From IMG/VR virus record IMGVR_UViG_3300021431_000111, positions 13,555-77,554 of that record: a DNA stretch of 64,000 bases; one strand, written 5' to 3'. The DNA is from a virus (lineage: Duplodnaviria > Caudoviricetes). Below, in pieces: positions 4,851 to 42,185 of this stretch. Below the pieces are notes generated by a model. It was given only the letters and a program-made list of their open reading frames with translations, had not been told where the DNA came from and searched no databases. A program made the translations under genes and the position numbers. Position 1 is the first letter of the stretch, and the number at the start of each line of letters is the position of its first letter.

Positions 4851-5363
4851 ATGGCTCACGCAGTTGTTCGCACAGATAAAATGTACGGAACTGATGTTAG
4901 AACTGGCATGGTATCTGTGGCAATTACAGAAGATAACGGCATTGACAATGGTTGCGTAGCAATCCTTGGCGATCTCGCAGATAAAGGAACTTATGACAAA
5001 GAGCGCGAAATCTACAGCATCTACAAACCGGCTGCTAATAGCGATTTCGGTAAAGTAGTTCTTATTGCATCTCCTGAAGTTAATGCTAACCCGTTAGAGT
5101 ATGCACTTGATGCATTCTACAACAAAAAAGATTCTATCGCACGCGGATATCGTCTGCATCATGGAGATATCTTCTCCGTTACAGCAGAAGCTCTGGCTGG
5201 TGTTAATGACGATACAGCAGCAGGCGATATTGTTGAATTAAAGGCTGATTACAAACTCAACGTTGTTATGGAAGCAACAAGTGGTTCTACTGTAATCGGC
5301 GTAATCATTGATGTTGAAACCGTTGGCTCTTACAAATACTTCGTTATCGAAGTAACAGCTTAA
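4851..5363 (+). CDS. Head decoration/cement protein
   Basis: 170 aa between scaffold and MCP; strong SD (GGAGG); paralogue at 39079. Confidence 0.7.
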   Translation: MAHAVVRTDKMYGTDVRTGMVSVAITEDNGIDNGCVAILGDLADKGTYDKEREIYSIYKPAANSDFGKVVLIASPEVNANPLEYALDAFYNKKDSIARGYRLHHGDIFSVTAEALAGVNDDTAAGDIVELKADYKLNVVMEATSGSTVIGVIIDVETVGSYKYFVIEVTA

Positions 5364-26023: not shown

Positions 26024-26521
26024 GTGAAAGGGCTTATGAGAATTTATACAATATTTAAAAATATTATTAAAAAAATACAAGCTAGTGTTAATGTTGAGAG
26101 AATAACGGAATCCGAAATTGATACTATATTTGGAAGCTCATCTGGCACAAGTACGAATGCTCAAGATTACGTAGTAGAACACGGCACGTCTGGAATTTGG
26201 ACTTACAGAAAGTGGGCATCTGGTATCGCTGAATGCTGGGGTACACAAAGACATACAATTACATCGTGGAGTGGATGGGGAAACCTGTTTGAAGGAAAAC
26301 CAATTTTTACAACCAATTATCCATCTGGTCTATTCCTATCCCCACCCACAATCAATATGGTTGCGGATGGGACGCCGTCCAACTCAGGTACTTGTGGTCT
26401 GGAGATTTGGCAATATGGTTCAGCATCTGTCACACCACAAATGCTTGTGTTACGACCAAATTCAACAAGCACAAACATTGCTTTTAATATTCACATGGAA
26501 GCAAGAGGATTTTGGAAATAG
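26024..26521 (+). CDS. Tail fibre/receptor-binding domain protein
   Basis: Shares GTSGIWTYRKWASGI.E.WG with the next gene. Confidence 0.6.
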   Translation: MKGLMRIYTIFKNIIKKIQASVNVERITESEIDTIFGSSSGTSTNAQDYVVEHGTSGIWTYRKWASGIAECWGTQRHTITSWSGWGNLFEGKPIFTTNYPSGLFLSPPTINMVADGTPSNSGTCGLEIWQYGSASVTPQMLVLRPNSTSTNIAFNIHMEARGFWK

Positions 26522-26530
26522 AGGTGTTAA

Positions 26531-27229
26531 ATGAAATCATTAGACATTTTAGGCTTAGATCATGTGGCTCAGAAAATATATGACTTAATCGGTAGTGGTG
26601 GTTCTGCGAATTATATTATAGAGGAAGGAACTTCAGGTATATGGACGTATCGCAAGTGGGCTAGCGGTATAATGGAGGCATGGGGAAATACAAGCGCAAG
26701 TGTCGCAATGACAAATCCAATTCAAAACACCTATTACGGCAATACCTCGATAAGTATTTCTGGACTAGGATTTACCACATTGCAATCTGTTCATGTAACT
26801 GGGCAAGCATCAGGCTCTTATTTCGGAACGAAACTTGAATCTTATAACACTTCACAGATTACGGTTTCTTCTCGCTCATCTGCTTCGTATACAAACACCA
26901 TAAATTTTTCTTTTGAAATAAAAGGGTTATGGAGGGCGTTCACTCCAAGTGTGTCTCGTGCCGTATATAATCTCGGAGATTTAAAAGTTGGAAGTCTTGA
27001 AGTACCGGCTACTATAAGTGCAAATGCTACGACGTGGGTGACTGCGACTATTCCAGATGGACGAACGCTGGTCTGCCCCGCTGGTTATTATTATTATGGT
27101 GATAATAATGTTAATTGTACCGTGTACGCATTCAGACAAATTAACGACACGCAGATACAATTTGCGATAAGGAATTGGGCATCGGCCAAAGCTCCATTAA
27201 CATTGGCAGTTTCATACATTTATGTTTGA
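26531..27229 (+). CDS. Tail fibre/receptor-binding domain protein (paralogue with extra C-terminal domain)
   Basis: Same GTSGIWTYRKWASGI motif as 26024-26521. Confidence 0.6.
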   Translation: MKSLDILGLDHVAQKIYDLIGSGGSANYIIEEGTSGIWTYRKWASGIMEAWGNTSASVAMTNPIQNTYYGNTSISISGLGFTTLQSVHVTGQASGSYFGTKLESYNTSQITVSSRSSASYTNTINFSFEIKGLWRAFTPSVSRAVYNLGDLKVGSLEVPATISANATTWVTATIPDGRTLVCPAGYYYYGDNNVNCTVYAFRQINDTQIQFAIRNWASAKAPLTLAVSYIYV

Positions 27230-27325: not shown

Positions 27326-27739
27326 ATGGAATACGAAAGAACAAATTGGGAGACAGGGGATGTTATTTCAGCAGACAAACTTAATAATATTGAGGACGGG
27401 ATTGAGCGCGCATGGACTCCAAGTCCTAATTATCGAGCAGTAGCCATGTTTAAAACTAAAGTGGTCGGAGATGATGAAATCTTATGCAATGCTCTAAATC
27501 AAAATATAACAAGTGATAATATAATGAATTATGTATCTCCACCAGATTATGATGGGGTCATGTTTCTTCCTGCATTATTTATCACGCAACAGGAGTCCTC
27601 GGAATCAGGAACAATCCGTTTCGGATTACTTTTCGAGTTCGTTATCGAGGGAGGAATTGTAACCACTATTGATTTTACAAACGGTACTTTTCTATATAAT
27701 GATACTGATAATTGTTACTACCTTGATACCTCAAGATAA
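27326..27739 (+). CDS. WxTGD/KLN N-terminal module protein 1 (putative virion appendage)
   Basis: Begins MEYERTNWETGDVISADKLNNIEDGI; three more copies in the window. Confidence 0.7.
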   Translation: MEYERTNWETGDVISADKLNNIEDGIERAWTPSPNYRAVAMFKTKVVGDDEILCNALNQNITSDNIMNYVSPPDYDGVMFLPALFITQQESSESGTIRFGLLFEFVIEGGIVTTIDFTNGTFLYNDTDNCYYLDTSR

Positions 27740-27765
27740 AAGGCACATTTTATTTACACAATTAG

Positions 27766-27794
27766 ACCACCCTACTCTTTTGAGTATGGGTGGT
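27766..27794 (+). terminator. Hairpin after 27326-27739
   Basis: ACCACCC-TACTC-tttt-GAGTA-t-GGGTGGT. Confidence 0.5.
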
Positions 27795-27814
27795 CATTTA
27801 CTATATAAAGGAGC

Positions 27815-28162
27815 GTGAGGTGGATTATGTATAAGATTACAACCCCTACAGTAACATTTACATTTCCTGCTGGTGTCGACATGACGCAGGCGGAAAATGT
27901 ATTTGTAACTTTTTCAGATTTGAAATCGTCAAAGATAATTGAGAAAACTGGAGAATCCCTTACGATTACTTCGAATGCGGTAGAGGTTCTTTTAACACAG
28001 GAAGACACTCAACGCTTTCCTGTAGGTACAGTAAAAGTACAAATCAACTGGACATACCTCGACGAGGGGATTACAAAAAGAGCCTGCACAGATGTGATGG
28101 CATTTATTGTTAGAGACAACTTACATCCAGAAATTATATCTGGATCGCAAGGCGGTGAATAA
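27815..28162 (+). CDS. BppU N-terminal-like adaptor, copy 1
   Basis: TTPT.TF…LTQE(D/E)…FP.G…VQ.NW…RAC shared with 33734-34057. Confidence 0.6.
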   Translation: MRWIMYKITTPTVTFTFPAGVDMTQAENVFVTFSDLKSSKIIEKTGESLTITSNAVEVLLTQEDTQRFPVGTVKVQINWTYLDEGITKRACTDVMAFIVRDNLHPEIISGSQGGE

Positions 28163-28164
28163 GT

Positions 28165-31134
28165 ATGGATATTAATGGAGTTCAAATAATTGACATTGAT
28201 GAACCTGTAACAATTGGGATGAATGCTCCAATCGAAATAGGTGAACATTTACCAACAGGCACCGTATCTATTACCGAAAACGGAACACATAATGTTGGAG
28301 GGTATGCAAAAGCTGATGTGAATGTGGAACTTGATCCGCCGCCATTACAACCTAAAGCGGCTATGGCAAATAGATACAACGCCAAGTATGTAGAGCCCGA
28401 TGAAGGCTATTACGGACTTTCCGTAGTTTCAATACCGCCGATAAATCTAGAACATAAAGAAAACGTGTATCCAACCCAAAATGCGCAATACATATATCCT
28501 TCCGAACCGGAGCCAAAAGCGGATTTAGTTATGGGTAGCTGGGAGGATTTACCTTACACAACAGACATGGATTTGAGTTCATTGGAAAACGGTTCTAGTT
28601 ATGTGCTAAGTGTTTATATTATTGGGCGTCGAACAACAATCCGTGAAGTATTTCGATGGAATTCTTTAACCGGAGCGGGTGTAAAAATAGCAGATAATAG
28701 TTATATATATACGTTTATTTTAGCAAAAAATAACAAAATAACTATAGAATCATCTAATGAAACTGATAATGAACGTTTTTTTATAGATATTTATAAGTTT
28801 AATGAATATTATGTTGGCTTGGAAGGTGTTGAAGTTGAACCGATAAAATTGACGAACATTGATGTTTATCCTGCAACATCTTCTCAGATATATGGGTCTC
28901 CCGTCATAAATCCAATTCAATATATTATTTCGGAAGATACCACCATATCAGAACCATATAGTGTTACTATCGATGCGTCGCTTATGCCAATCGGAATGGA
29001 TTGCGAAATTTACGGATCTGGAGACCCTCCATCTGGTGGCGAGCTTGGGCGAGGTCTTGAAGCAAGATTCACAGTTCCGGAAACATACGGCGAATTAATA
29101 AAAACATTCACATTCGATCAGGATCAGCAAACAGTCACAATCGCTTTTTGGACGGATTCTTCGCATCACACGGTTACCGTTTCGCCTGGTGAATCAGCAA
29201 TATACGAACTTTTTATTTCCGAGTATGTAGCGGATGGATATCGTCGTGTATCTGTTGGAGCGATCAAAACCACTGACCTAATTGTTACTCCAACAAAGCA
29301 AAGCCAGACTTTTATTCCAGACGGCAGCGTTATTAGTAACATTATTACTGAGACAACCGTTATTTCTACGCCGTATACTGTTCAGATAGATGCTACTTTA
29401 ATGCCGGCTAATATGGACTGTTATATCTATGGCTCGTCCGCATCTGGTGGAGAAATAGATGACACCATCGCAAATAAAAACCGACGATTCAAAGTTCCTA
29501 GATCGACAGCCTCTGCGCAAGATAAAACAAAAACGTTTAGATTTCTCCAAACAGGTCGTATTGTGACGATCAATTTCTGGACTGATAGTACGCATCATAC
29601 AATAACAGTCGATGCTTCAGAGTATGAAATTTTTAAATTATATATACGAGAATACGGAAACGATGGCTATGACTACGTAACTGTCGATCCTATTCCAGAT
29701 GATTATATTGTTCCGTCGGGAACAAAATCTATTACAGCTAATGGAACCGGAATTGACGTTAGCAGTTATGCAAGTGTAGATGTTGCAGTACCATCTTCCG
29801 CTACCCTGACAACAAAAACAATCACGGTGAACGGAACCTACAATGCATCTTCCGATAATGCGGATGGTTACTCCGCCGTAATGGTTAACGTCTCCGGTGG
29901 AGGGGGCGGTACAGTAGATTCCGGTGTTATATTTATCGATTACGACGGAACAATTGTCGATTCTTATTCCGCATCAGAAGTTGCGAGTCTAACAGCACTT
30001 CCCGCAAATCCAACGCATAACGGGTTAACATCTCAGGGATGGAACTGGTCGTTGGCGGATATTAAAACATATTTTACGAATCATCCAAATGAAAAGTTAA
30101 CAGTCGGACAAATGTATGTAACGTCTGATGGGAAGACCAGAATTGAGATTGAGCTTACGGAAGGACGACTTTCTCCGTACCTATCCTTGGCAGTTGACGG
30201 GAATGTTTCAATTGATTGGGGCGACGGTTCAACTGATGTTATGACCGGGTCAAGTCTTACGGTACGGCTAAGTCAGCAACATGTTTATCAGTCGGCTGGC
30301 CAATATGTTATTACGATTGAAGTTACAAATGGCACGGCTGCTTTTTATAGTACATCGACCTATCCACTTTTAAATAAAAACAGTGGCGTAGCAAATGAAA
30401 ACAGAGTATATACTAATGCGGTTAAAAAAGCATATGTTGGAAGTAATATAAATATTGGAACTTATGCTTTTATGTATTGCTACTCTCTCACATCAATCAC
30501 AATACCTGACGGTATAACGAGTATTGGGAATAGTGCGTTTACTTCTTGCTACTCTCTTGCGTCAATTACAATACCTGACGGTGTAACGAGTATTGGGAGT
30601 AGCACATTTAGTAATTGCTACTCTCTTGCGTCAATTGCAATACCTGACCTTGTAACGAGTATTGGGAGTGGCGCATTTAATAATTGCTACCCTCTTGCGT
30701 CAATCACAATACCTGACGGTATAACGAGTATTGGGAGTAGCATGTTTGCTTCTTGCTATTGTCTCACATCAATTACAATACCTGACGGTGTAACGAGTAT
30801 CGGAAATAGCGCATTTGCTTCTTGCTATTGTCTCACATCAATTACAATACCTGACGGTGTAACGAGTATTGGAGCTTATCTGTTTACTGCTTGCTACTCT
30901 CTCACATCAATCACAATACCTGACGGTGTAACGAGTATTGGAAATAACGCATTTAGTACTTGCATAGGTGTTGCCGAATACCATTTTCAATCGGAAACAC
31001 CACCTACGCTCGGAACAACTGCATTTGCAAGTATTCCAAGCGATTGCATCATCTACGTTCCAAGCGCAAGTGTAGAAGCATACAAAGCAGCAGAAAACTG
31101 GAGCACTTACGCATCCCAGATACAAGGTGAATAA
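28165..31134 (+). CDS. Modular fibre/adhesin with C-terminal BspA-type (LRR_5) leucine-rich repeats
   Basis: Seven LxSITIPDGVTSIGxxAFxxC repeats, C-cap PPTLGTTAF…IYVP, shaft repeats and duplicated inserted domains. Confidence 0.85.
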   Translation: MDINGVQIIDIDEPVTIGMNAPIEIGEHLPTGTVSITENGTHNVGGYAKADVNVELDPPPLQPKAAMANRYNAKYVEPDEGYYGLSVVSIPPINLEHKENVYPTQNAQYIYPSEPEPKADLVMGSWEDLPYTTDMDLSSLENGSSYVLSVYIIGRRTTIREVFRWNSLTGAGVKIADNSYIYTFILAKNNKITIESSNETDNERFFIDIYKFNEYYVGLEGVEVEPIKLTNIDVYPATSSQIYGSPVINPIQYIISEDTTISEPYSVTIDASLMPIGMDCEIYGSGDPPSGGELGRGLEARFTVPETYGELIKTFTFDQDQQTVTIAFWTDSSHHTVTVSPGESAIYELFISEYVADGYRRVSVGAIKTTDLIVTPTKQSQTFIPDGSVISNIITETTVISTPYTVQIDATLMPANMDCYIYGSSASGGEIDDTIANKNRRFKVPRSTASAQDKTKTFRFLQTGRIVTINFWTDSTHHTITVDASEYEIFKLYIREYGNDGYDYVTVDPIPDDYIVPSGTKSITANGTGIDVSSYASVDVAVPSSATLTTKTITVNGTYNASSDNADGYSAVMVNVSGGGGGTVDSGVIFIDYDGTIVDSYSASEVASLTALPANPTHNGLTSQGWNWSLADIKTYFTNHPNEKLTVGQMYVTSDGKTRIEIELTEGRLSPYLSLAVDGNVSIDWGDGSTDVMTGSSLTVRLSQQHVYQSAGQYVITIEVTNGTAAFYSTSTYPLLNKNSGVANENRVYTNAVKKAYVGSNINIGTYAFMYCYSLTSITIPDGITSIGNSAFTSCYSLASITIPDGVTSIGSSTFSNCYSLASIAIPDLVTSIGSGAFNNCYPLASITIPDGITSIGSSMFASCYCLTSITIPDGVTSIGNSAFASCYCLTSITIPDGVTSIGAYLFTACYSLTSITIPDGVTSIGNNAFSTCIGVAEYHFQSETPPTLGTTAFASIPSDCIIYVPSASVEAYKAAENWSTYASQIQGE
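30481..30963 (+). repeat. Seven tandem 69-bp repeats encoding 23-aa LRR units
   Basis: Core ATACCTGAC(GG/CT)T(G/A)TAACGAGTAT in every unit, exact 69-nt period. Confidence 0.95.
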
Positions 31135-31178
31135 TCGTCTGGGCAACCAAATATAATAAAATGAATAAAAGGAGACAA

Positions 31179-32159
31179 ATGAAATTACAAATTTTAATAC
31201 CTCAGTACAAAGAGGCTGACGACGTGGTGAAGCCACTACTAGATAGTATTGAAATCCAACAGAATGTTAACATGAATGAAATCGGAGTTGTTATCGTAAA
31301 CGACGGTTCCGATATTCGTTTATCCGAAAAATTATTAAACAATTACTCGTACAAGATTGATTATATTTTAAACGAGCATAAAGGCGTCAGCGCTACAAGA
31401 AACGCTTGTCTCGATCATGCAACCGCAGACTACGTTATGTTCTGTGATGCTGACGACATGTTCTATAGTGTATGTGCCTTCTGGATTATTTTTAGAGAGA
31501 TTGATAGCAATCCATTTGATAGTATGACAACCCTATTCATTGAAGAAACGAGGAATCCTCAGACGAAAGAGCCGTTCTATATTAATCATGAGATGGACTC
31601 CACTTTTGTCCACGGTAAGGTTCATCGCAGGCAATATCTTATTGATAATAATATTAGATGGAATCCGAAACTTACGATTCATGAAGACAGTTTCTTCAAT
31701 ATTTTATGTGCAAACCTATCAACGAATGTAAAGTATTGTCAGACCCCATTATATTTATGGAAATGGCGAGACGAGAGCGTTTGCAGACATGATCCGAAGT
31801 ATATCCTTAAGACATATAAAAACATGATTGATAGTAACGATGCTTTAATTCAAGAATTCTTTAAGCGTAATGTCAATGACAAGGCATTGTTCTACATCGC
31901 TTTTATGATTTTTGACGCGTATTACACAATGAACAAACCTGATTGGATTAATCAGACTAATAAGAAGTATAGAAATTCAACTGAAAAGAGATTCGCTAAA
32001 TACTATAAGAAATATAAAAAGTATTGGGGTGCAATTCCAGATATGGACAAGATGCAGATTTCTCAAGGTATTAGAGGAAGAAGTGTCATGGAAGGAATGC
32101 AAATGGAAGCCATGACAGTTAATGAATGGTTATCACATATTGAAACATTAATAAAATAA
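31179..32159 (+). CDS. Glycosyltransferase family 2
   Basis: ILIPQY…IVNDGS…GVSATRN…YVMFCDADD (DxD), IHED; ATG 31179 follows AAGGAG. Confidence 0.9.
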   Translation: MKLQILIPQYKEADDVVKPLLDSIEIQQNVNMNEIGVVIVNDGSDIRLSEKLLNNYSYKIDYILNEHKGVSATRNACLDHATADYVMFCDADDMFYSVCAFWIIFREIDSNPFDSMTTLFIEETRNPQTKEPFYINHEMDSTFVHGKVHRRQYLIDNNIRWNPKLTIHEDSFFNILCANLSTNVKYCQTPLYLWKWRDESVCRHDPKYILKTYKNMIDSNDALIQEFFKRNVNDKALFYIAFMIFDAYYTMNKPDWINQTNKKYRNSTEKRFAKYYKKYKKYWGAIPDMDKMQISQGIRGRSVMEGMQMEAMTVNEWLSHIETLIK

Positions 32160-32172
32160 TAATTTTAACAAC

Positions 32173-33678
32173 ATGAAAGGAGTGCTGCTCGATATGAATA
32201 TTAATAATCCGATCAGCGTAAGCGTAGATATTGACAATGTGGTAAGCGCAACTATTACTACACCAATTACAGTCGGGCAGCATGCTCCATCCGGCACGAT
32301 CAATATTACAGAAAACGGGTTGCATCCCGTTGCTGGATATGCAAAAGCGGATGTAAATATTTCCATACCGTCTGAATACATTCAATTAATGGATTATTTT
32401 CAAGGGCAGAGATCGTCATATTTAAGTAATAGTATCTTGCAATCAATCGGAGACGATGCGTTTATTTTTGATGAGGTGCTTCAAAGCGTATATCTCCCAA
32501 ACGTTACTAACATTGGCGTTTGCGCATTTTCGGGATGCACTTCTCTAGCAAGCATTAACATCCCCAAGGTCAGCCATTTGGGTCATGGCGCTTTTATGGA
32601 CACAGCACTTTCCAATTTAAATATATCAAATGATATAACTATTGACAATTTTTGTTTTCAGTACTCTAATCTTGAAAGCGCAGCATTTCCTAATGCAACA
32701 TATATTGGAGATTCGGCGTTTGGGTATTGTTATAATTTAAAAAGTATTTATATTCCAAAAATAAGTAGCATAGAATCGTGGGTTTTTAGCAATTGCGGAT
32801 TTATATCGGTAGATTTTTCGAATATCAACTATGTCGGATACGGCGCCTTTTCTAATTGCGCAAATTTGACTGACGTAAATCTTCCTAACGCCACAACTAT
32901 TTATTCATGCGCTTTTGAAAATGATAGGAGTCTGGAAAACGTCAACATACCTAAAGCGACAAGCATAGGTAACGCGGCTTTTTCTTACTGCACATCGCTA
33001 TCCAACATTAATGCCATAAACGTAGCTTATATTGGTAATTCCGCATTTAATTCATGTGCTATCGAAAGCATTAATATGCCAAGCGCAACCTACATAGGAG
33101 ACAACGCATTTGGCTTTTGTCAAAAATTAACGAGCATCAATTTTCCAATTGCGAGTTATGCAGGTCAATATGCGTTCTACAATTGTAATACTTTAACATT
33201 TGCAAATCTCCCGATTGTTGAAAAAGTTACGTATTATATGTTTAATCGTTGCTTTCACCTGACGTCTGTTAATTTACCAGAAGCAAGTCTTGTTGGTCAA
33301 TACGCGTTTGCATCTTGTTCTTCATTAGCGTCGATTAATCTTCCGGCGACTACGTCAATATCGTCTTACGCATTTACTTATTGTATAGAATTAACGACTG
33401 CAAGTTTTCCAGCTGTAAGTTATATAGGGAATTACGCGTTTTCTCACTGTTACGTACTTAAAAGCTTATATTTATTAGGAAGCATTGTAGCTAGCCTAGG
33501 TGGCAGTAACGTATTCTCTTCAACTCCTTACGTATCACCAAAGAGTGGAACTTACGGCAGTATATTTGTTCCGCAAAGTTTATATGATGCATATATATCG
33601 GCAAAATATTGGAGTGCGTTTTCATCCCGGTTTGTAAGCTTAACTGACGCGGAAATAGAATTAATCAGGAATGAATAG
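32173..33678 (+). CDS. Second BspA-type LRR fibre/adhesin
   Basis: Many LxxxxxPxxxxIGxxAFxxC repeats; N-terminus homologous to that of 28165. Confidence 0.85.
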   Translation: MKGVLLDMNINNPISVSVDIDNVVSATITTPITVGQHAPSGTINITENGLHPVAGYAKADVNISIPSEYIQLMDYFQGQRSSYLSNSILQSIGDDAFIFDEVLQSVYLPNVTNIGVCAFSGCTSLASINIPKVSHLGHGAFMDTALSNLNISNDITIDNFCFQYSNLESAAFPNATYIGDSAFGYCYNLKSIYIPKISSIESWVFSNCGFISVDFSNINYVGYGAFSNCANLTDVNLPNATTIYSCAFENDRSLENVNIPKATSIGNAAFSYCTSLSNINAINVAYIGNSAFNSCAIESINMPSATYIGDNAFGFCQKLTSINFPIASYAGQYAFYNCNTLTFANLPIVEKVTYYMFNRCFHLTSVNLPEASLVGQYAFASCSSLASINLPATTSISSYAFTYCIELTTASFPAVSYIGNYAFSHCYVLKSLYLLGSIVASLGGSNVFSSTPYVSPKSGTYGSIFVPQSLYDAYISAKYWSAFSSRFVSLTDAEIELIRNE

Positions 33679-33733
33679 AAATAAATATTTTTTATATTAC
33701 TAAATAACAAAACACGTCAAAGGAGGGGGACGA

Positions 33734-34057
33734 ATGTATAGAGGAACTACTCCCACGTATACATTTAAAACGCCAGAAGATCTCGATTTGTCACAAATGG
33801 AAAAAGTATACATAACATTTTCTAAAAAAAGTGGCAGAGAAATAATAACTAAAACTAATGACGACCTTGTTTTCGAAGATGGCGTTGTAAAAGTAAGATT
33901 AACACAAGAAGAGTCCTTAAGTTTTCCAGAAGGAATTGCCTTAGTACAGCTTAACTGGCTTTTTCGGAACGAAAACGACGAGCTTGATAGGGCATGCTCG
34001 AATATATTAAATATTAAAACTTATAATAATTTAAAGGACGAAATCTTGGAGTTATGA
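33734..34057 (+). CDS. BppU N-terminal-like adaptor, copy 2
   Basis: MYRGTTPTYTF…; paralogue of 27815-28162. Confidence 0.65.
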   Translation: MYRGTTPTYTFKTPEDLDLSQMEKVYITFSKKSGREIITKTNDDLVFEDGVVKVRLTQEESLSFPEGIALVQLNWLFRNENDELDRACSNILNIKTYNNLKDEILEL

Positions 34058-34058
34058 A

Positions 34059-34508
34059 ATGTATAATCATTACAAAAAATATCTAGATATGAAAAGCTGC
34101 CCTATCAAATGCGGGTCGTTATGCGATTTAACTAAAGACATTAGCGTAGAAAACGAAGTTGCTAATATTTCTATAGCAAGCGATAACTTTGTCGAAGACG
34201 TAGCTATCGCTGAGTCCGTTATACAAAATGTAGTACCTGACGGAACTGAGAATGACAATATTGTTGATGTTGCAATGACGGACGATACGACCGTTGACGT
34301 CATTATAGACGAATCAATTTTAATTAATGTTATTCATGATGCAGACGAGTATGATGGCCCTTATGTAGTCGATCCGCATACCAAGAATGATGTAGTTCTT
34401 AATACAAATAATAAAGTAATGAAGCGCGACGTCACTGTAAAAAAGATAGCATACTTCGAAACTCACAATGATTTTGGTGAAACAATTTATATAGGATCGG
34501 AGATTTAA
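34059..34508 (+). CDS. Tail fibre shaft-like protein
   Basis: YDGPYVVDP…DVTVKKIAY shaft-type motif. Confidence 0.55.
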   Translation: MYNHYKKYLDMKSCPIKCGSLCDLTKDISVENEVANISIASDNFVEDVAIAESVIQNVVPDGTENDNIVDVAMTDDTTVDVIIDESILINVIHDADEYDGPYVVDPHTKNDVVLNTNNKVMKRDVTVKKIAYFETHNDFGETIYIGSEI

Positions 34509-34509
34509 A

Positions 34510-35079
34510 ATGGCAAAGAATAAAATTATTTACGGCGGCAATGTATTGATTGACTTAACAGATGCTACAGCTGTTGCCGCTGACGTAGCATCTGGCAAGT
34601 ATTTTTACGGCAAAGACGGTGTTAAGACCGAAGGAACGAACACATACGATGCAGATACTTCCGACGCAAATGCTGTCGCAGCAGAGATTCTCTCCGGCAG
34701 AACTGCATATGCAAATGGTTCTAAAGTTACTGGTGATATGACCAATAACGGAGCTGTATCAGGGACAATTTCAACGAAAGATGGAGTATACACCGTACCA
34801 AACGGCTATCATGATGGGTCTGGTACTGTACAAATCTCTTCAACGGAACAGGCAAAAATAATTGCTGCAAATATTAAGAGTGGCGTTGAGATACTTGGTG
34901 TAGAGGGAACGTATACTGGTGAAGCAATCACAGCTCAGGCTAAGAGTGCTACTCCAATGACATTTCAGCAGACGGTTTTACCTGACGACGGATATGATTA
35001 CCTTTCTCAGGTTACAATAGCTGCAATTCCATATACTGAAACAGCTAACGCATATGGCACCACGGTTACAATAGGGTAG
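34510..35079 (+). CDS. Tail fibre shaft-like protein
   Basis: IDLTDATA.AADV…, YTVPNGYHDGSG, NIKSGVEILGVEG, PDDGYDYLSQVT motifs. Confidence 0.65.
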   Translation: MAKNKIIYGGNVLIDLTDATAVAADVASGKYFYGKDGVKTEGTNTYDADTSDANAVAAEILSGRTAYANGSKVTGDMTNNGAVSGTISTKDGVYTVPNGYHDGSGTVQISSTEQAKIIAANIKSGVEILGVEGTYTGEAITAQAKSATPMTFQQTVLPDDGYDYLSQVTIAAIPYTETANAYGTTVTIG

Positions 35080-35089
35080 GTGATTATGG

Positions 35090-35302
35090 TTGGCAGAGAA
35101 TAAAGTTATATTTGGGAATAATGTTATTATCGATTTAACTGATACCACTGCTCTAGCGTCCGACGTTAGCAGTGGTAGTTATTTTTACGGAAGAGATGGT
35201 GTAAGAACTCAGGGAACCTTAGAGTTCATTACATATTACACAGGAACGTCTGAACCAAGCACTTCTCTTGGTAAAGACGGAGATATCTACTTACAGAGTT
35301 AA
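35090..35302 (+). CDS. Short paralogue of the 34510 N-terminus with a G.DGDIY fibre motif
   Basis: TTG start 6 nt after GGTGA; NKVIFGNNVIIDLTDTTA vs NKIIYGGNVLIDLTDATA. Confidence 0.6.
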   Translation: MAENKVIFGNNVIIDLTDTTALASDVSSGSYFYGRDGVRTQGTLEFITYYTGTSEPSTSLGKDGDIYLQS

Positions 35303-35313
35303 AAGGAGTACAT

Positions 35314-37698
35314 ATGTCAAGACAAATTGATGTGCAAGATAGTGTAACAATCTACCCATCTGACTACGATAGCTCTAATTCAAGTTATTCGAGCGTAAGT
35401 AGTAGTTATCCAATTAGTAATGGTTATGATAGCTCAAGCTCTACCGATTATGCTTATATTACTTGCAGAACGGGCTCTGGAGCGGCATCTTATATTTCGT
35501 ACACATTTAACGTTTCTGGCGTGCCAGAAGAAGCAACGATTGATTCTGTTTCTTGCACAGTCAAATCAAGAGTAAGTTCGACCTCATATCTGACATCATC
35601 TACGATCCAGTTATATTCTGGATCGACCGCGAAAGGCAGATCAACTTCTGCTGCTTCCACTTCTGCCACTGCTCGATCAATCAGCAACACAGGAAGTTGG
35701 ACGAGATCAGAGCTTGACAATATTCAGGTAAGACTTACCGGAACGAGAGGTACGAGCAACACTAATAGAGCTGCATACTTATATTTTTATGGTGCTGATC
35801 TAACGATTAACTATTCCATTAGCGGAATTGCTTACACAGTAACAGCAACATCGACAGTGAGTAGCGCTACCGCATCTCCTTCAACTCAGGAACTAATGGC
35901 GGGAGAAACAGCCATTGTAAGAATCGATGCAAAAGATTTAACAGGCTTGTTAGTTACTGATAACGACACGGATATTACGGAACAATTAGAGCAACATCTA
36001 TTGCCGACTGGTGGAGAACTAGAAAAATATCCTGAGTCTTACACAACTTCTGGCATACAGAGCGGTGAACAATATGCCGCATATTGCATTGGACATAGCG
36101 CGGAAGATCCATATAGTTCGTCTAGTAATATGTACGCTTCCAGAAATGAAAATGGATATACAGAGTATTCGTTCGACTTTAGTGATATCCCTGAAAATGC
36201 GACAATAACAAATGTCAGTATTACGGTAAACGGTCATCGAGAAAGTTCGACTGTGAGTAGTACTTATGTATCACGAGTACAAGCTTATTCTGGATCGTCT
36301 GCAAAGGGTGAGTACTACGAATTTTCCAGCACTTCAAATGAAACGCATACCTTAGAGAATACAGGAAGCTGGACTAGATCAGAACTTCAAAATGCGAAGT
36401 TAAGACACACCGTTGGATATTATGGAGGACTCGTCTGCGGTGTTACTTGGTCAGTAACATATGATGTTCCGTCAACCGGAAACTTATATTATTGGACTTA
36501 CACGATAACAAACATTGGCGTCGATCACACGATTCTTATTGATGAATCCGGGCCATTTATACCGCCAGATGAAGATCCTGATTACACTTATTATCCTATC
36601 ACAATCTCAAGTATTAACGCCAAAACAACTCCTGGTACAGGAACAGAGAGAGTTCAGGAGGGGACAGATCATGTAGTGACAATCGAACCGCTCGATCCTA
36701 AGTTGACATTAGCTCTTGACAATGGCGTTGATATTTCAGATCAGCTGGTTCATTTACCTCCGTCTAATACATACACGATTACGCCCAAGGTATCTGGTGC
36801 TGACTATGGTTTTAATCTTAATAGCTCTAGTGGATATTATGTATCCACAAACAATGGTGTAAGTAAATCTGCATCAGTTGCTAGATTAAATATGGACTTT
36901 GAAAGTGATTGTTTAGTTACTATCACCTATATTAATTATGCGGAAGCCAATTATGATTATGGTCTGTTTGGAAAATTAGATACTACAGTATCTACAGATG
37001 GACTGACTGCATCTAGCGGAGGTTCTGTCCCTTCTGATAGTACGTCTAATTATCAACTTGCGATGTGTTCGAACAGCGCAAGTCAACAAACAATTACATA
37101 CGAAGTCCCGGCCGGACAACACTATATCGATATAAAATATGGCAAGGACGACGCGTCTGATGATGGAAATGACAGTCTCCAGTGGAAAGTAACAAGTGTT
37201 GAGGCCTCTTCGGCCGGAGGATCCTATACATATACTTTAAATAATATTGCACAAAAACATAGCCTCGTATTTATTTTTGGTGACGTTGAATACTATTTCG
37301 TAACGTCTAGCGGATCAAACATAAAACTTTACCCAGACGGTCAAAGCGTGTTGTTGGCTGGTTACGATTATCGTTTGTTGATTGTTCCTGATGATGCGAA
37401 TGCAAAAGTAACATTAACTGATAACAATGTTGATAAAACCAACCTTCTTCAGTACGAAGAAGCTACAGACAAATCTGGTAAGAAGATTGTTAATTATGTA
37501 TATGAGTTAACAAATGTTACTGCGCAGCACACAATCGTAGTTAAGTGTGGAATCTCACAACATTTGTTTTTTAAAGTTAGCGGATCATGGAGAGAAGCTA
37601 ACAAAGTTTATAAAAAGGTAAATGGAAGTTGGGTCATACAAACAGATCTTGCATCTGTGTTTAATAATTCAACAAATTATAAAGCAGTAATTGAATAG
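35314..37698 (+). CDS. Ser/Thr-rich multidomain virion adhesin
   Basis: Duplicated YSGS.AKG…NTGSWTRSEL domain, three Ig-like linker repeats, C-terminal KV.GSW repeats. Confidence 0.7.
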   Translation: MSRQIDVQDSVTIYPSDYDSSNSSYSSVSSSYPISNGYDSSSSTDYAYITCRTGSGAASYISYTFNVSGVPEEATIDSVSCTVKSRVSSTSYLTSSTIQLYSGSTAKGRSTSAASTSATARSISNTGSWTRSELDNIQVRLTGTRGTSNTNRAAYLYFYGADLTINYSISGIAYTVTATSTVSSATASPSTQELMAGETAIVRIDAKDLTGLLVTDNDTDITEQLEQHLLPTGGELEKYPESYTTSGIQSGEQYAAYCIGHSAEDPYSSSSNMYASRNENGYTEYSFDFSDIPENATITNVSITVNGHRESSTVSSTYVSRVQAYSGSSAKGEYYEFSSTSNETHTLENTGSWTRSELQNAKLRHTVGYYGGLVCGVTWSVTYDVPSTGNLYYWTYTITNIGVDHTILIDESGPFIPPDEDPDYTYYPITISSINAKTTPGTGTERVQEGTDHVVTIEPLDPKLTLALDNGVDISDQLVHLPPSNTYTITPKVSGADYGFNLNSSSGYYVSTNNGVSKSASVARLNMDFESDCLVTITYINYAEANYDYGLFGKLDTTVSTDGLTASSGGSVPSDSTSNYQLAMCSNSASQQTITYEVPAGQHYIDIKYGKDDASDDGNDSLQWKVTSVEASSAGGSYTYTLNNIAQKHSLVFIFGDVEYYFVTSSGSNIKLYPDGQSVLLAGYDYRLLIVPDDANAKVTLTDNNVDKTNLLQYEEATDKSGKKIVNYVYELTNVTAQHTIVVKCGISQHLFFKVSGSWREANKVYKKVNGSWVIQTDLASVFNNSTNYKAVIE

Positions 37699-37754
37699 TT
37701 TAAATAAATGCAATATATATAACAGGTTTTTATAAAGGAAGGATAAATTTAGTA

Positions 37755-38012
37755 ATGATTAATTTAAAGTTAAGACTTAAAAATAAAACAACTTTAGTTA
37801 CGATGGTTCTAGCAGTTATATCTTTTGTTTATATGGTATTAGATACGATCGGTATTGTTCCAAAATTTGACCAGGATATGATTATTAAAATTGCGCTTGG
37901 ATTAATCGACCTGCTCGCTATCCTTGGAATTATTGTTGACCCAACGACAGATGGAATTACTGATAGCGCAAGAGCCATGACATACGAAGTGCCATATAAC
38001 GACAATATATAA
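37755..38012 (+). CDS. Holin (phiLC3-like)
   Basis: MINLKLRLKNK start, two TM helices, LGIIVDPTT.GI.DS.RA..Y..P motif. Confidence 0.88.
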   Translation: MINLKLRLKNKTTLVTMVLAVISFVYMVLDTIGIVPKFDQDMIIKIALGLIDLLAILGIIVDPTTDGITDSARAMTYEVPYNDNI

Positions 38013-38045
38013 AAGCATAGTTTTATTTATATTGGAGTAGGACAT

Positions 38046-38453
38046 ATGGCTTACATAAAAACAAATTGGAAAACTGGCGATACGATAACAGCAGATAAAT
38101 TAAATAATATTGAAAATGGAATAGCAAGTTCCGGAGGTGACGGTGGCGCTTTAATCACTGAGCCAACTTGTACCGAAAATCCAGATGGATATACTATTGA
38201 CTTCAACATTACTTTTAATGAGATTAAAAACGCATATTTAAGTTCTAAAAATATTATTGCTTCGTATCCTTCTGAAACAGAAAACCTATATGGTAATTTT
38301 CAAGTATTAACCATATGGGAAGCAACTGAAGATGGTACAACAAGTTATGGTTTAAAATATAATGTTGAGGATATAGGTAGCACAATTACAGGTGAGGAAT
38401 TCATTACAACAGATCCAGATTCCAACATTATTTATGTTAATTCTGGTCATTAA
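38046..38453 (+). CDS. WxTGD/KLN N-terminal module protein 2
   Basis: MAYIKTNWKTGDTITADKLNNIENGI. Confidence 0.7.
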   Translation: MAYIKTNWKTGDTITADKLNNIENGIASSGGDGGALITEPTCTENPDGYTIDFNITFNEIKNAYLSSKNIIASYPSETENLYGNFQVLTIWEATEDGTTSYGLKYNVEDIGSTITGEEFITTDPDSNIIYVNSGH

Positions 38454-38556
38454 TACTACATTAAATTGGTGAAGACGATGTATATTCCTATGAATTACGA
38501 CAAATTAAACACTGTTGATTCATCTTATATCCCCATTTTGTGTTTATAATTTCACC

Positions 38557-38657
38557 AATAACGTGCGCAAGGCATGTTATTAGGCGGAGAGGCGTATACT
38601 GCTTTCCGCAATAGATGTACGCGGGAGTCTCGAAGTTTATGTCGAGGCTTTCGCGTA
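38557..38657 (+). ncRNA. Candidate structured small RNA or 5' leader (three hairpins)
   Basis: 10-, 8- and 16-bp stems with five G·U pairs, starting 6 nt after TATAAT (38545-38550). Confidence 0.55.
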
Positions 38658-38758
38658 ATGAGTTAAAGGACGATGAAATATTGAGGATGTAGGGCTAAAC
38701 GAAATAAAAGGCCGAAGTATTATAAGAAAAGATTATACAAGCATAGAGGTGAGAAAAG

Positions 38759-39061
38759 ATGCCCACATTTACATTAATTGTTACGTTATGTAACGGAGTT
38801 ATGGCAATACTTGCATTAATTATTGCCATTGCAAAACCAATTCGAAAATCAATCGAATATAACAAATCTGATAACGAGGCTATTAAATGCCTTTTACGCA
38901 CACATATACTTAACACTTATTTAAAGTATAAGGAAGGACGAAAGATTCCAAGATTTGAACGTCAAAATATGGACTATCTGTACGAGGCTTATGTATGGCG
39001 TAAAGGCAACAGTTTCGTGGAGGATATTTACGAAGAAATCAGAGATTGGGAAATCGTATAA
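38759..39061 (+). CDS. Small single-TM protein (lysis-module associated)
   Basis: N-terminal hydrophobic helix, then CLLR..I…Y…GNS.V motif. Confidence 0.7.
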   Translation: MPTFTLIVTLCNGVMAILALIIAIAKPIRKSIEYNKSDNEAIKCLLRTHILNTYLKYKEGRKIPRFERQNMDYLYEAYVWRKGNSFVEDIYEEIRDWEIV

Positions 39062-39078
39062 GGTACGAGGTGATATAT

Positions 39079-39666
39079 ATGAAACACGCAATTTTAAGAA
39101 CAGACAAGATGAAGTCAGTAGATACAAGAACTAATATTGTATCTGTAAAACTTCCAGACACACTTGAACTCGATAACGGTAGTATAGTTAGGCTTGGAGA
39201 ATTAATTGAATATGAAACACAAATTGGTAGAGGCAAAAAATACAGAGAAATATATTCCATTAAACCTGCACTACCAGGCACTCCTTTAAATAAACTTGTT
39301 GTAATTGGCTCGCCAGAAATGAATGATTTCTTAGTCGGTGATAGTATTGGATCACATTATAATAAACCAGGATCTATTGTGAGAGGATACGCTATCTCCA
39401 AAGGAGACATTTTCTCTGTAACAGATGAACTAATTACATCTGGAGAACCAGATGTAGGTAAATTAGTTATAACCAACGGTACTGGTTTAGAAATTTTGGA
39501 GGAAGATCCATACGATCCTCTTGGCAAAATTATTGACAAAGAGTTCTATGATAACAGATGGTATTATGTAATTGAAGTTGACGATGAAGCAACTGAAAGT
39601 CAGTCTGGCGGAGATGGAGACAGTCTAGTAGGAAGTGCGGTTGTCGGAACTGCAATTGCTGGATAG
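39079..39666 (+). CDS. Second head decoration/cement paralogue with C-terminal extension
   Basis: Aligns along its length with 4851-5363 (HA..RTDKM, DNG, REIYSI.P, SPE, RGY…GDIFSVT, Y.VIEV); extra tail …GDSLVGSAVVGTAIAG. Confidence 0.8.
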   Translation: MKHAILRTDKMKSVDTRTNIVSVKLPDTLELDNGSIVRLGELIEYETQIGRGKKYREIYSIKPALPGTPLNKLVVIGSPEMNDFLVGDSIGSHYNKPGSIVRGYAISKGDIFSVTDELITSGEPDVGKLVITNGTGLEILEEDPYDPLGKIIDKEFYDNRWYYVIEVDDEATESQSGGDGDSLVGSAVVGTAIAG

Positions 39667-39675
39667 GAGGCAGGT

Positions 39676-40047
39676 ATGAGTTATATAAAAACACAATGGA
39701 AAACTGGTGATGTCATTACTTCTGAAAAGCTAAACAATATTGAGGACGGTATCAGCCGAACAAATGCAATAGAATTGGATCTAGGCACAACATCTGATAA
39801 CATCGGTAAATCATTCAACGAAATAGAAGATGGTCTTCTTAGCGGTTGTTTATTTTACTATAAAAAATACGATAATACTGGGTATGAACTCCGAAAGATA
39901 GACGTTGTTGCCCTAGGTTATGATCCTACTATTACAGATGCGTATGCGTGCTCGCTTAATATGTGGAGTGTAGAGTCAGACACCCCTCTTCATATACTCT
40001 GTATATCTAACGACCCTGACGCCCCTATGGGATTGGATAATAAATAA
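39676..40047 (+). CDS. WxTGD/KLN N-terminal module protein 3
   Basis: MSYIKTQWKTGDVITSEKLNNIEDGI. Confidence 0.7.
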   Translation: MSYIKTQWKTGDVITSEKLNNIEDGISRTNAIELDLGTTSDNIGKSFNEIEDGLLSGCLFYYKKYDNTGYELRKIDVVALGYDPTITDAYACSLNMWSVESDTPLHILCISNDPDAPMGLDNK

Positions 40048-40122
40048 TGCATATGATCAAGAGGCTCAGGACGAGGAGATGGAGATAGTCTGACGGATGA
40101 TATTTAAATATTGCATGTTTTT

Positions 40123-40147
40123 ATAGAGCTGTTTGGCTCTATTTTTT
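40123..40147 (+). terminator. Rho-independent terminator
   Basis: ATAGAGC-tgtttg-GCTCTAT plus T run. Confidence 0.7.
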
Positions 40148-40285
40148 ATTGCCTAAAACACGGAGGTAAAGGTATGAGCGAAGTAAATCTTACATCTTGG
40201 CTCGAGACACTTGATAAAGATTTTATGAATCGTCCCGAGTCTGATAACGAAAACAACGGTGATAGTTCGCATGAGGAGGAAAAGA

Positions 40286-41197
40286 ATGAGTAGAATTGTA
40301 TTTAACAGCCAGAATGATTGGGTAAACGCTATGAAGAAAGCGGCAAGTTTCAGCACCGCATATAGCAACCACTACCCTTACAATCTTTTATATTGGGACG
40401 GAAGAACCCTATATGCTGATTGCAGTAACTTCCAGAAGGCTTTATTTAATGGAGGCAATCCATTTAATCTTAACCGTGGTATGAACGCTGGAAGGTATTG
40501 GCCGAACAACACAGGAGATTGTACAGAATATGGATTAATCTCTCAGTGCAGTGGAGTTAATGGAAACTTCGCAGCTCTGCGACTTGGCTATCCTGAACTG
40601 CTTTATATGCCGGGACATATCGGAGCTTTTATCGGACAGGAAGTCTGGATTAATGGTAGATGCTACAATACGATTGAGGCCACAGCATGGACTGGGGATT
40701 TTGGTCATACTGGAATCATCTATTCTTATGTTGATGCTAACGGACGTAGACTGAACCATAAAGGTGGATATCAGTGTATGACATGGACTCTGCACGGCAA
40801 ACCGACGAAGTGGGTTAAGTACACCACTCCTGCTCCATCACCGTCCCCTGCTCCAACCGGAAAGCTTGCAGTGGATGGGGAATGGGGAATCCTCACAACA
40901 AGAGCAACTCAGAGGTTTTTCAAAACAACTGTTGACGGCATTGTGTCCCATCAGCCGACCGGTCTCAGAAAATATTGTATGAATTGCCTTGAGTCTTCTT
41001 GGCAATGGAGAGACGACGGTGGATATTCTCCAATGATTCAGGCAATGCAGAAATGGCTTGGAGTATCTGCCGACGGACACTTCGGCCCGAACACAATCAA
41101 GGCACTTCAGAGGAAGCTAGGCGTTGGCCAGGACGGCTATTGCGGCCCAACAACGGTTAGCGCATGGCAGAAGTTCTTGAATGCGAATTTGAAATAA
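40286..41197 (+). CDS. Endolysin (Cys/His peptidase-like catalytic domain plus peptidoglycan-binding repeats)
   Basis: YADCSN and GHIGAFIG catalytic-like motifs, Pro-rich linker, DG..G..T repeats (VDGEWGILT, ADGHFGPNT, QDGYCGPTT). Confidence 0.85.
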   Translation: MSRIVFNSQNDWVNAMKKAASFSTAYSNHYPYNLLYWDGRTLYADCSNFQKALFNGGNPFNLNRGMNAGRYWPNNTGDCTEYGLISQCSGVNGNFAALRLGYPELLYMPGHIGAFIGQEVWINGRCYNTIEATAWTGDFGHTGIIYSYVDANGRRLNHKGGYQCMTWTLHGKPTKWVKYTTPAPSPSPAPTGKLAVDGEWGILTTRATQRFFKTTVDGIVSHQPTGLRKYCMNCLESSWQWRDDGGYSPMIQAMQKWLGVSADGHFGPNTIKALQRKLGVGQDGYCGPTTVSAWQKFLNANLK

Positions 41198-41264
41198 CAC
41201 TATATTATTTACTGGCGGGCTCGTTTATATAGCGAGCCCAATAATAAAAGGTGGTTAATTATCT

Positions 41265-42089
41265 ATGGAATATACAAAACAAACCTGGAAAACAGGAGAT
41301 ATAATTACGGAAGAAAAATTAAATCATATAGAAGACGGAATTGCAAATAGCGGATATACGATAACAAAAGGCGAAGATGTGGTAATATTTAGTGGGGATG
41401 TCACGACTGAAGGAGATCAAGATGACATAAGTAGTTGTGAGTTAGAAATTGAACCGATCGGGGACGCGGTTCCACCTAAAGAATTATCTATTAGATATGA
41501 CGATGTTGCATATGTAACAGAAAGGCAGAATATCGCTTCTGGCTTCTATAGCTATGGCGCACATATGGACGAAGAGTCTAAACTTCCTGACTTTAGCGAA
41601 TATCCGTTTTGTGTAATATTGCGATCAGACGGCGGCTTTTTAGCCACTCCAATACCTGGACATCATGATATTTTTATACAATATACTGAAAAAAACATTA
41701 CTCCAACAGAAGAGTTTATCGAAGCAACACAACAAGCAATAGATGTTAAGTATGATATTAAAGTGGCACTCGGAGACGGTGGCATAATTTTTAATGTAAA
41801 TAACACCCCACAAGATATATATGAATTGCTTTCAGTAGGAGCGGATGGAAGAGCTAAAATTATTGATGTTGGAAAATACACAATGTGTTATCTTGACGGA
41901 ACAATATCATCATCTGATATTGAATATGTAAGCAACGCGCAGGGGTTTAGATTTTATTCTACTCCAATAATTGACAACGGAACATTAACGTATAAATATA
42001 TCCTTGATGTTGTACGGGAAATGACAAAAGCCGGATATGAATACTCCTTTGTTCTAAACAAAGATTATTCGAATAGACATAAAGGGTAA
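41265..42089 (+). CDS. WxTGD/KLN N-terminal module protein 4
   Basis: MEYTKQTWKTGDIITEEKLNHIEDGI. Confidence 0.7.
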   Translation: MEYTKQTWKTGDIITEEKLNHIEDGIANSGYTITKGEDVVIFSGDVTTEGDQDDISSCELEIEPIGDAVPPKELSIRYDDVAYVTERQNIASGFYSYGAHMDEESKLPDFSEYPFCVILRSDGGFLATPIPGHHDIFIQYTEKNITPTEEFIEATQQAIDVKYDIKVALGDGGIIFNVNNTPQDIYELLSVGADGRAKIIDVGKYTMCYLDGTISSSDIEYVSNAQGFRFYSTPIIDNGTLTYKYILDVVREMTKAGYEYSFVLNKDYSNRHKG

Positions 42090-42117: not shown

Positions 42118-42149
42118 ATAACAGCCTCTATTATGAGGCTGTTATTTTT
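42118..42149 (+). terminator. Rho-independent terminator ending the late operon
   Basis: ATAACAGCCTC-tattat-GAGGCTGTTAT plus T run. Confidence 0.8.
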
Positions 42150-42185
42150 ACGAATTAAAAGGAGTGAATTAGTATAATAAACAAC

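Follow-up and report, generated by a model that had tools for sequence, protein, structure and literature searches.

The 64,000-nucleotide stretch of DNA analyzed here (the window, bases 13555-77554 of the 77.5-kb IMG/VR virus record IMGVR_UViG_3300021431_000111) comes from an uncultured phage and encodes four small proteins, MOD1 to MOD4, that begin with the same 26 residues, M-x-Y-x-K-x-x-W-x-T-G-D-x-I-T-x-x-K-L-N-x-I-E-x-G-I. We refer to this common N-terminus as the module. We found that the module heads a large number of other phage proteins and that the products of genes directly in front of module genes end, far more often than those of other genes, in a short C-terminal tail, as does the product of the gene upstream of MOD3 (cementB). 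These observations suggest that tail and module may be the two halves of a connector by which small domains are mounted on the virion.

A regular-expression scan of all six frames with W-x-x-G-D-x-(I/V)-(T/S)-x-x-x-L-N-x-I-E-x-G gave exactly four matches, each at Met1 of one of the four open reading frames (ORFs) in which a sequence-only reading of this DNA had first noticed the common N-terminus. A profile of the four N-termini, searched against the whole 77.5-kb record, found the same four places only (E 1e-22 to 1e-23). Fourteen of the first 26 positions are invariant among the MODs. Any two of them share 16-20 of the 26 residues, 6-10 of which are specified by different codons, and the nucleotide identity over the module is 68-73%, so that conservation acts at the protein level, as had been proposed. 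In the wider module family Y3, W8, N20 and E23 are invariant, and T15, K18, L19 and G25 are nearly so.

In all four MODs the module stands at the extreme N-terminus, and the structural models of MOD2 and MOD4 show a separate domain behind it. The AlphaFold2 (AF2) model of MOD2, with a predicted local distance difference test score (pLDDT) of 81.8, has residues 1-15 extended, a helix at 16-29, a linker, and a domain at 34-135. As predicted, the module begins with an extended segment containing Tyr and Trp, turns at G-D and ends in the amphipathic helix KLNxIExGI. No match in Pfam, NCBIfam or PHROGs covers the module of the four MODs, whose lone library match is a weak one to phrog_15651 ('tail fiber', E 0.007); in a Pfam scan of ten other module proteins the module was likewise uncovered. 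Searching the PDB with profiles built from 4 and from 40 module sequences yielded nothing meaningful, and a full-text literature search for the motif letters returned nothing relevant.

Table 1. Module genes, cement-like genes and hairpins in the window (window coordinates)
Feature	Position	Strand	Description
cementA	4851..5363	+	170 aa; directly upstream of the major capsid gene (5382-6392); phrog_4147; without tail
MOD1 (ORF 27326)	27326..27739	+	137 aa; module = residues 1-26 (27326-27403); C-terminal ~105 aa orphan
Hairpin 3' of MOD1	27765..27795	+	-23.1 kcal/mol, z -4.98
MOD2 (ORF 38046)	38046..38453	+	135 aa; module 38046-38123, SSGGDGG linker, alpha/beta 'famA' domain
cementB	39079..39666	+	195 aa; cementA paralogue; added acidic/Gly linker; C-terminal tail LVGSAVVGTAIAG at 39622-39663
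MOD3 (ORF 39676)	39676..40047	+	123 aa; module 39676-39753, orphan C-terminus, weakly famA-like
Terminator-like hairpin and T run 3' of MOD3	40123..40152	+	stem 40123-40142
Hairpin between endolysin and MOD4	41217..41239	+	z -3.46
MOD4 (ORF 41265)	41265..42089	+	274 aa; module 41265-41342, modelled beta-sandwich 'domain A', poorly modelled C-terminal part
Intrinsic-terminator-like hairpin and T run 3' of MOD4	42118..42150	+	z -4.52

C-terminal domains and spread of the module

The sequence-only reading held the C-termini of the four proteins to be unrelated, which is correct with one qualification. Over residues 31-90 the ungapped identity between any two MODs is 3-6 of 60 residues, and at this level they are nearly dissimilar. 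On the other hand, the MOD2 C-terminus falls into a sizeable family of small domains that we call famA (hhalign 94.7%), and that of MOD3 matches the same family weakly (probability 20%, E 1e-3), which makes a distant C-terminal link between MOD2 and MOD3 possible. We also observed that an internal segment of MOD3, FNEIEDGL (window 39805-39830), echoes the module helix LNNIEDGI and aligns with a conserved famA helix. In word-based searches the C-termini of MOD1 (residues 31-137) and MOD3 returned only themselves and that of MOD4 one close relative; the MOD1 C-terminus gave no profile match either. Fold searches with MOD2, using Foldseek (PDB, BFVD) and VIA-align, remained at noise level (best Z 4.6) and pointed to no known fold.

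Domain A of MOD4 (residues ~33-147, window 41361-41705) is modelled with a pLDDT of about 90, against less than 50 for the remainder. Its five best structural matches are all receptor-binding tip domains of phages (Z 5.0-6.8), namely those of phage phi812 (Z 6.8), phage K gp144 (Z 6.6) and the T7 gp17 tip (Z 6.3), followed at Z about 5 by a Klebsiella phage fiber and an Acinetobacter phage tailspike. In the VIA-align superpositions with Z 6.3-6.8, 79-87 residues align with a root-mean-square deviation of 2.7-3.1; because these values lie below the level at which the tool is reliable, about Z 8, we treat the likeness as a lead only. Foldseek returned only noise for the MOD4 model, and an ESM Atlas search with MOD4 was uninformative.

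A second large family of small domains, famB, is found behind double modules and is unrelated to famA at the profile level (hhalign probability 0.2). BLAST single-linkage clustering had joined many C-termini into one superfamily, which we rejected on the basis of this profile-profile comparison. In other phages domain A precedes famA-type or famB-type domains. Judged by these comparisons, the C-termini are truly diverse and shuffled, rather than one fold borne by simple whole-gene paralogues, with the caveat of the possible distant MOD2-MOD3 link.

The sequence-only reading had also suggested a profile search for C-terminal diversity and copy number. At E<=0.001 the four-sequence profile matched the representatives of 8,064 clusters (built at 50% identity), of which 1,233 still matched at E<=1e-10, with diverse domains behind the module. 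Among the best 150 matches, 146 carry the module at the N-terminus, as two tandem copies (119), one copy (24) or three copies (3). In nearly all of these a GGGS-type linker leads from the last copy to a globular part; the other four proteins carry three C-terminal copies. In three proteins (P0027, P0034, P0036) the three C-terminal copies stand behind a conserved 'LPLPIPGNLGDLVGKN' region. The partner domains include BspA-type leucine-rich repeats (LRR), DUF285 repeats, a tyrosine-phosphatase-family domain and many unnamed domains of ~100 aa. The phosphatase-family case, P0103 / P0156 (a 714-aa protein of a Clostridiales metagenome-assembled genome), has two modules and then the PF13350 domain, an enzyme-like payload. 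Many of the 78 viral module contigs carry two to six module genes.

Several module proteins of named phages carry recognizable appendage domains. In Ruminococcus gnavus phages the 'head fiber' gene (gp6/gp7) lies directly after the capsid gene and encodes the module, a collagen run and a phi29 head-fiber tip; residues 64-116 of gp6 match PF11133 at profile positions 225-277 only, the distal tip. The module is followed by collagen in Clostridium perfringens phage CPD1 and by a BppL_N motif in a Leuconostoc 1-A4 'baseplate protein', whose gene adjoins the holin and lysin genes. A variant of the module with a four-residue insertion occurs in mycobacteriophages, in Dori gp18 ('head fiber') and in 'minor tail proteins' of the cluster F type such as Boomer gp24, and in one mycobacteriophage minor tail protein a PTR repeat stands behind the module. 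A PDB search with Dori gp18 gave no match, and the capsid region of Rosebush contains no module. Collagen, the head-fiber tip and BppL are parts of trimeric virion appendages. Since its partner domains belong to such appendages, the module proteins are probably trimeric too.

Two relatives of our phage, L024 and L017 (contigs of 84-85 kb), are similar to it in layout. In both, a module gene comes after genes for an LRR fiber and a GT2 glycosyltransferase, and three or four tandem module genes are located further on, just before the integrase gene; one of these encodes a 258-aa MOD4 homologue. The GT2 gene of L024 and L017 (8870-9997) lies immediately upstream of a module gene; in the window a GT2 gene (31161-32159) lies between fiber genes.

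A C-terminal tail beside module genes

The gene in front of MOD3 encodes cementB, which shares 38% identity (E 3e-29) with cementA and ends in VGSAVVGTAIAG. This tail consists of a Gly/Ser/Asp linker and the motif (A/S)VVG(T/S)A(I/V)VG, or a looser xVGxAxVG, and cementB is its sole bearer in the whole record; 9 nt separate its stop codon from the MOD3 start. In L024 and L017, the tail is the only part that the proteins beside module genes have in common with cementB. Across all fetched loci we found it in about 15 ORFs, most of which end 1-60 nt before a module gene. Duplicates were then removed and the loose motif was sought in the last 30 residues. Of 52 genes whose 3' end lies no more than 30 nt in front of a module gene, 15 encode the tail, compared with 8 among the 1,428 remaining genes (odds ratio 72, p 7e-18). 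The tail peptide of the gene at 39079, which the sequence-only reading had singled out, is therefore a recurrent partner motif.

A reciprocal scan of IMG/VR for DNA encoding AVVGTA(I/V)VG, blind to the module, returned 41 stretches. Ten were contigs already in the module set. In two new contigs (L111 and L126) a module gene lies 7 and 28 nt behind the tail gene, and in a third (L122) the module is 3.5 kb distant; the remainder are mostly membrane segments or low-complexity repeats. Four contigs labelled as giant viruses (L104, L130, L108, L112) encode long low-complexity AVVGT/AVVST repeat proteins, contextually unrelated to the phage tail.

The bodies of the tail bearers are unrelated to one another. 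Two are clear major tail proteins (phrog_885, 9.5e-55; phrog_117, 1.2e-43), the short protein of contig L016 matches major-tail-protein families more weakly, and one is a Phi29-like major capsid protein (PF25622, above the curated cutoff). The others include a collagen-type tail fiber, a virion structural protein (phrog_2729), a 75-aa helical family and a zinc-ribbon-like protein.

The gaps between tail and module genes are mostly 1-15 nt long, which suggests coupled expression. They occur in all three phases, some with extra stop codons, which argues that tail and module belong to two separate proteins rather than to a readthrough fusion; fusion by readthrough or frameshift was considered as a general rule and ruled out on these grounds. 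In our phage the TAG stop codon of cementB and the ATG of MOD3 happen to be in frame (window 39664-39678), separated by GAGGCAGGT, so that readthrough would fuse both proteins. This arrangement is probably due to chance, since the frame is not kept at other loci.

A candidate two-part connector and its alternatives

Our preferred interpretation, to which we assign a probability of about 0.5, is a two-part connector in which the tail sits on lattice proteins of the virion and the module on small payload proteins. As read from the gene and domain arrangements, the socket would be a beta-prone xVGxAxVG pentad tail on an acidic/Gly/Ser linker, forming the exposed C-terminus of a repeating virion protein. 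The plug would be the N-terminal module of a small, probably trimeric protein, which would bind the tail and present its payload domain on a second flexible linker. In our phage, cementB may be a minor cement variant that occupies some of the cementA positions and offers a handle there. MOD3, probably translationally coupled to cementB, would clip onto the cementB tail, and we infer that MOD1, MOD2 and MOD4 may use the same tail, with the outcome that four different small domains would be displayed on the particle via flexible linkers. The predicted likeness of MOD4 domain A to fiber-tip binding domains, if the lead holds, would suit such a display role.

The sequence-only reading had proposed a trimerization or docking anchor that carries interchangeable payloads on the virion, possibly in the way of capsid-binding auxiliary proteins such as SPP1 gp12. 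The anchor idea gains support because the module heads LRR, collagen, head-fiber-tip and BppL-like domains in thousands of phage proteins, and its genes closely follow those of tail-bearing capsid, major tail, fiber and cement-like proteins. Homology to gp12 did not stand, as the gp12 sequence from the SPP1 record lacks the module. The four MOD genes also do not adjoin the capsid gene.

Several observations speak against the connector. In the window, only MOD3 has a tail within ~30 nt upstream, and MOD1, MOD2 and MOD4 instead follow a fiber gene, a holin gene and an endolysin gene. Many module genes elsewhere, such as those of the R. gnavus phages (the phiRM10 group), CPD1, Leuconostoc 1-A4 and contig L055, have no recognizable upstream tail, so that in some phages the module must do without it. 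No natural fusion of tail and module occurs among the fetched set. In addition, while cementA probably serves as capsid cement or decoration, both 4851-5363 and 39079-39666 are assigned to the cement proteins from their gene position and from a language-model lead: a Pfam scan of cementA and cementB gave nothing at E<=0.01, their PDB sequence search gave no match, and the protein-atlas clusters nearest to cementA contain PF22758 Phage_cement in 10-22% of their members (score 0.97-0.98), which we take as a lead only. Finally, the record is ~66% complete by the CheckV estimate. Since exact MOD1 and MOD4 sequences are also known from contigs as long as 98,282 bp, the complete genome probably measures close to 100 kb, and the part missing from the 77.5-kb record may hold more genes for modules or tails.

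Some of the same observations would be expected if the module were a self-association element, serving for trimerization or registration of small fiber or knob proteins in a role like that of the T4 foldon, with virion attachment elsewhere and the upstream tail a separate feature, for example an oligomerization strand of its own. The strong conservation of the module from Firmicutes phages to mycobacteriophages, in phages with unrelated structural proteins, would suit this explanation, as would its place immediately in front of collagen repeats, which depend on a trimer nucleus, its occurrence in tandem and occasionally C-terminal copies, and the many module genes without a tail-bearing neighbor. 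However, self-association leaves the odds ratio of 72 for adjacency to unrelated upstream bodies unexplained, and the flexible Gly/Ser linker behind the module suits a tether better than a fiber shaft. We consider this explanation rather unlikely.

We find it less probable still that the MODs are diverged whole-gene paralogues of an intracellular accessory family, with a function in lysis timing, superinfection exclusion or lysogenic conversion, in which only the N-terminus is constrained. Three of the four MOD genes do lie in or beside the lysis cassette or by the integrase gene, and L024 and L017 retain the position between lysin and integrase genes. Several MOD genes are laid out like morons, with terminators of their own, and a distant C-terminal domain may be common to MOD2 and MOD3. 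Nevertheless, the module elsewhere heads LRR fibers, collagen head fibers and BppL-like proteins, and in other phages its genes follow capsid and tail-tube genes. Neither a signal peptide nor a membrane segment is visible in the sequences of the four MODs, and domain A bears a tentative likeness to fiber tips.

That tail end and module start are recombination linkers for segment swapping, or a site of stop-codon readthrough fusion, would fit the unrelated domains on either side of the junction and the in-frame cementB-MOD3 pair, 9 nt apart, but is highly improbable given the protein-level conservation with diverged synonymous sites, the gaps in all three phases modulo 3, several in-frame gaps with further stops, and the lack of any fused ORF in the fetched set.

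Returning to the connector, we regard it as possible, though doubtful, that tail and module form a general portable plug-and-socket pair by which many Firmicutes phages, and actinobacteriophages with a variant of it, attach exchangeable small binding domains to heads and tail tubes. One socket protein could then take several plugs, four of them in our phage. Such a pair might possibly be a natural system in the style of tag and catcher, with a very tight beta-augmentation joint; the module residues K18, N20 and E23 would allow a hypothetical covalent link. Three features appear to be undescribed so far, namely the 26-residue module, the great breadth of its distribution, and the way it is paired with a C-terminal tail peptide borne by capsid, tail-tube and cement-type proteins.

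If tail and module do bind, thousands of small phage genes now called 'hypothetical' would be explained, and one could predict by a simple rule what, if anything, a given phage mounts on its head or tail tube. A tail of ~13 residues and a tag of 26 could also be tried in phage display, or to attach binding domains to particles, as a natural pair of minimal size. The choice of several alternative surface domains on one socket would also bear on how gut and rumen phages adhere to their hosts and surroundings.

Known systems and gene surroundings

Branched tailspikes and TP901-1 BppU/BppL are well-known examples of the design principle, in which variable distal parts share an N-terminal anchor and the partner genes are adjacent. 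TSP1-4 of CBA120, gp63.1/gp66 of G7C and the depolymerases of multi-depolymerase Klebsiella phages form branched or multivalent receptor-binding systems with a common N-terminal anchor. The MODs resemble them in that one phage has several proteins with the same N-terminal attachment and different C-termini, and partner genes that are adjacent. They differ in the size of the anchor (~26 residues), in their payloads (90-250 aa, not enzymatic beta-helices) and in the proposed dock, which would be a short peptide at the C-terminus of capsid, tail-tube or cement proteins and not a T4 gp10-like/XD domain.

A second parallel lies in phi29 gp8.5 (PF11133), a trimeric fiber displayed on the capsid, whose type of distal tip is joined to module and collagen in R. 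gnavus gp6. In that protein, however, the module replaces the capsid-binding base of gp8.5 and does not resemble it, and PF11133 had no match at E<=0.1 in the four MODs. SPP1 gp12, a small, reversibly bound trimeric capsid accessory, is alike in concept; unlike gp12, the MODs have no collagen repeats (neither a G-X-Y run nor a Collagen Pfam match was found in the four proteins) and are not encoded beside the capsid gene.

In the BppU-BppL pair of TP901-1 and Tuc2009 (PF18338), a trimeric receptor-binding protein inserts a short N-terminal segment into the C-terminal region of another virion protein, much as we propose for the module. Its motif is distinct, though, and BppL_N is seen in the Leuconostoc 1-A4 relative further along the chain; Pfam found no BppL_N or BppU match in the MODs of the window. 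Decoration via the exposed C-terminus of a tail-tube or capsid lattice protein is also known from lambda gpV, SPP1 gp17.1* and the BIG2 domain of phi29 gp8, but there the Ig-like or FN3 domains are covalently attached, as opposed to a tail peptide with a separate gene product as the proposed decoration here.

The MOD genes are scattered among tail and lysis genes, as the sequence-only reading had noted. MOD1 lies among fiber genes, behind two fiber-like genes of phrog_2712, and MOD2 behind a holin gene (PF04531). MOD3 lies between cementB and an endolysin gene with peptidoglycan-binding repeats, and MOD4 between the endolysin and a tyrosine integrase gene. Each has its own Shine-Dalgarno sequence. 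Several are bounded by hairpins, another point on which that reading was right, with strong ones after MOD1, after MOD3 and on both sides of MOD4 (Table 1).

Shared segments recur among other proteins of this region. The two fiber-like phrog_2712 proteins of 165 aa (26024-26521) and 232 aa (26531-27229) have a segment in common, and proteins of 115 aa (27815-28162) and 107 aa (33734-34057) are paralogues (phrog_15594). Two fiber-like BspA-LRR proteins (989 and 501 aa) have a common N-terminus of ~55 aa (…ITENG.H.V.GYAKADVN…; window 28165-28330 and 32173-32340), a second case of a shared head with different bodies in the same phage. The proteins p189 (34510-35079) and p70 (35090-35302) likewise have a common N-terminus. 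In two further contigs, L030 and L033, a p189 homologue ends in …GGTTVTIG, and a module gene starts 12 nt later.

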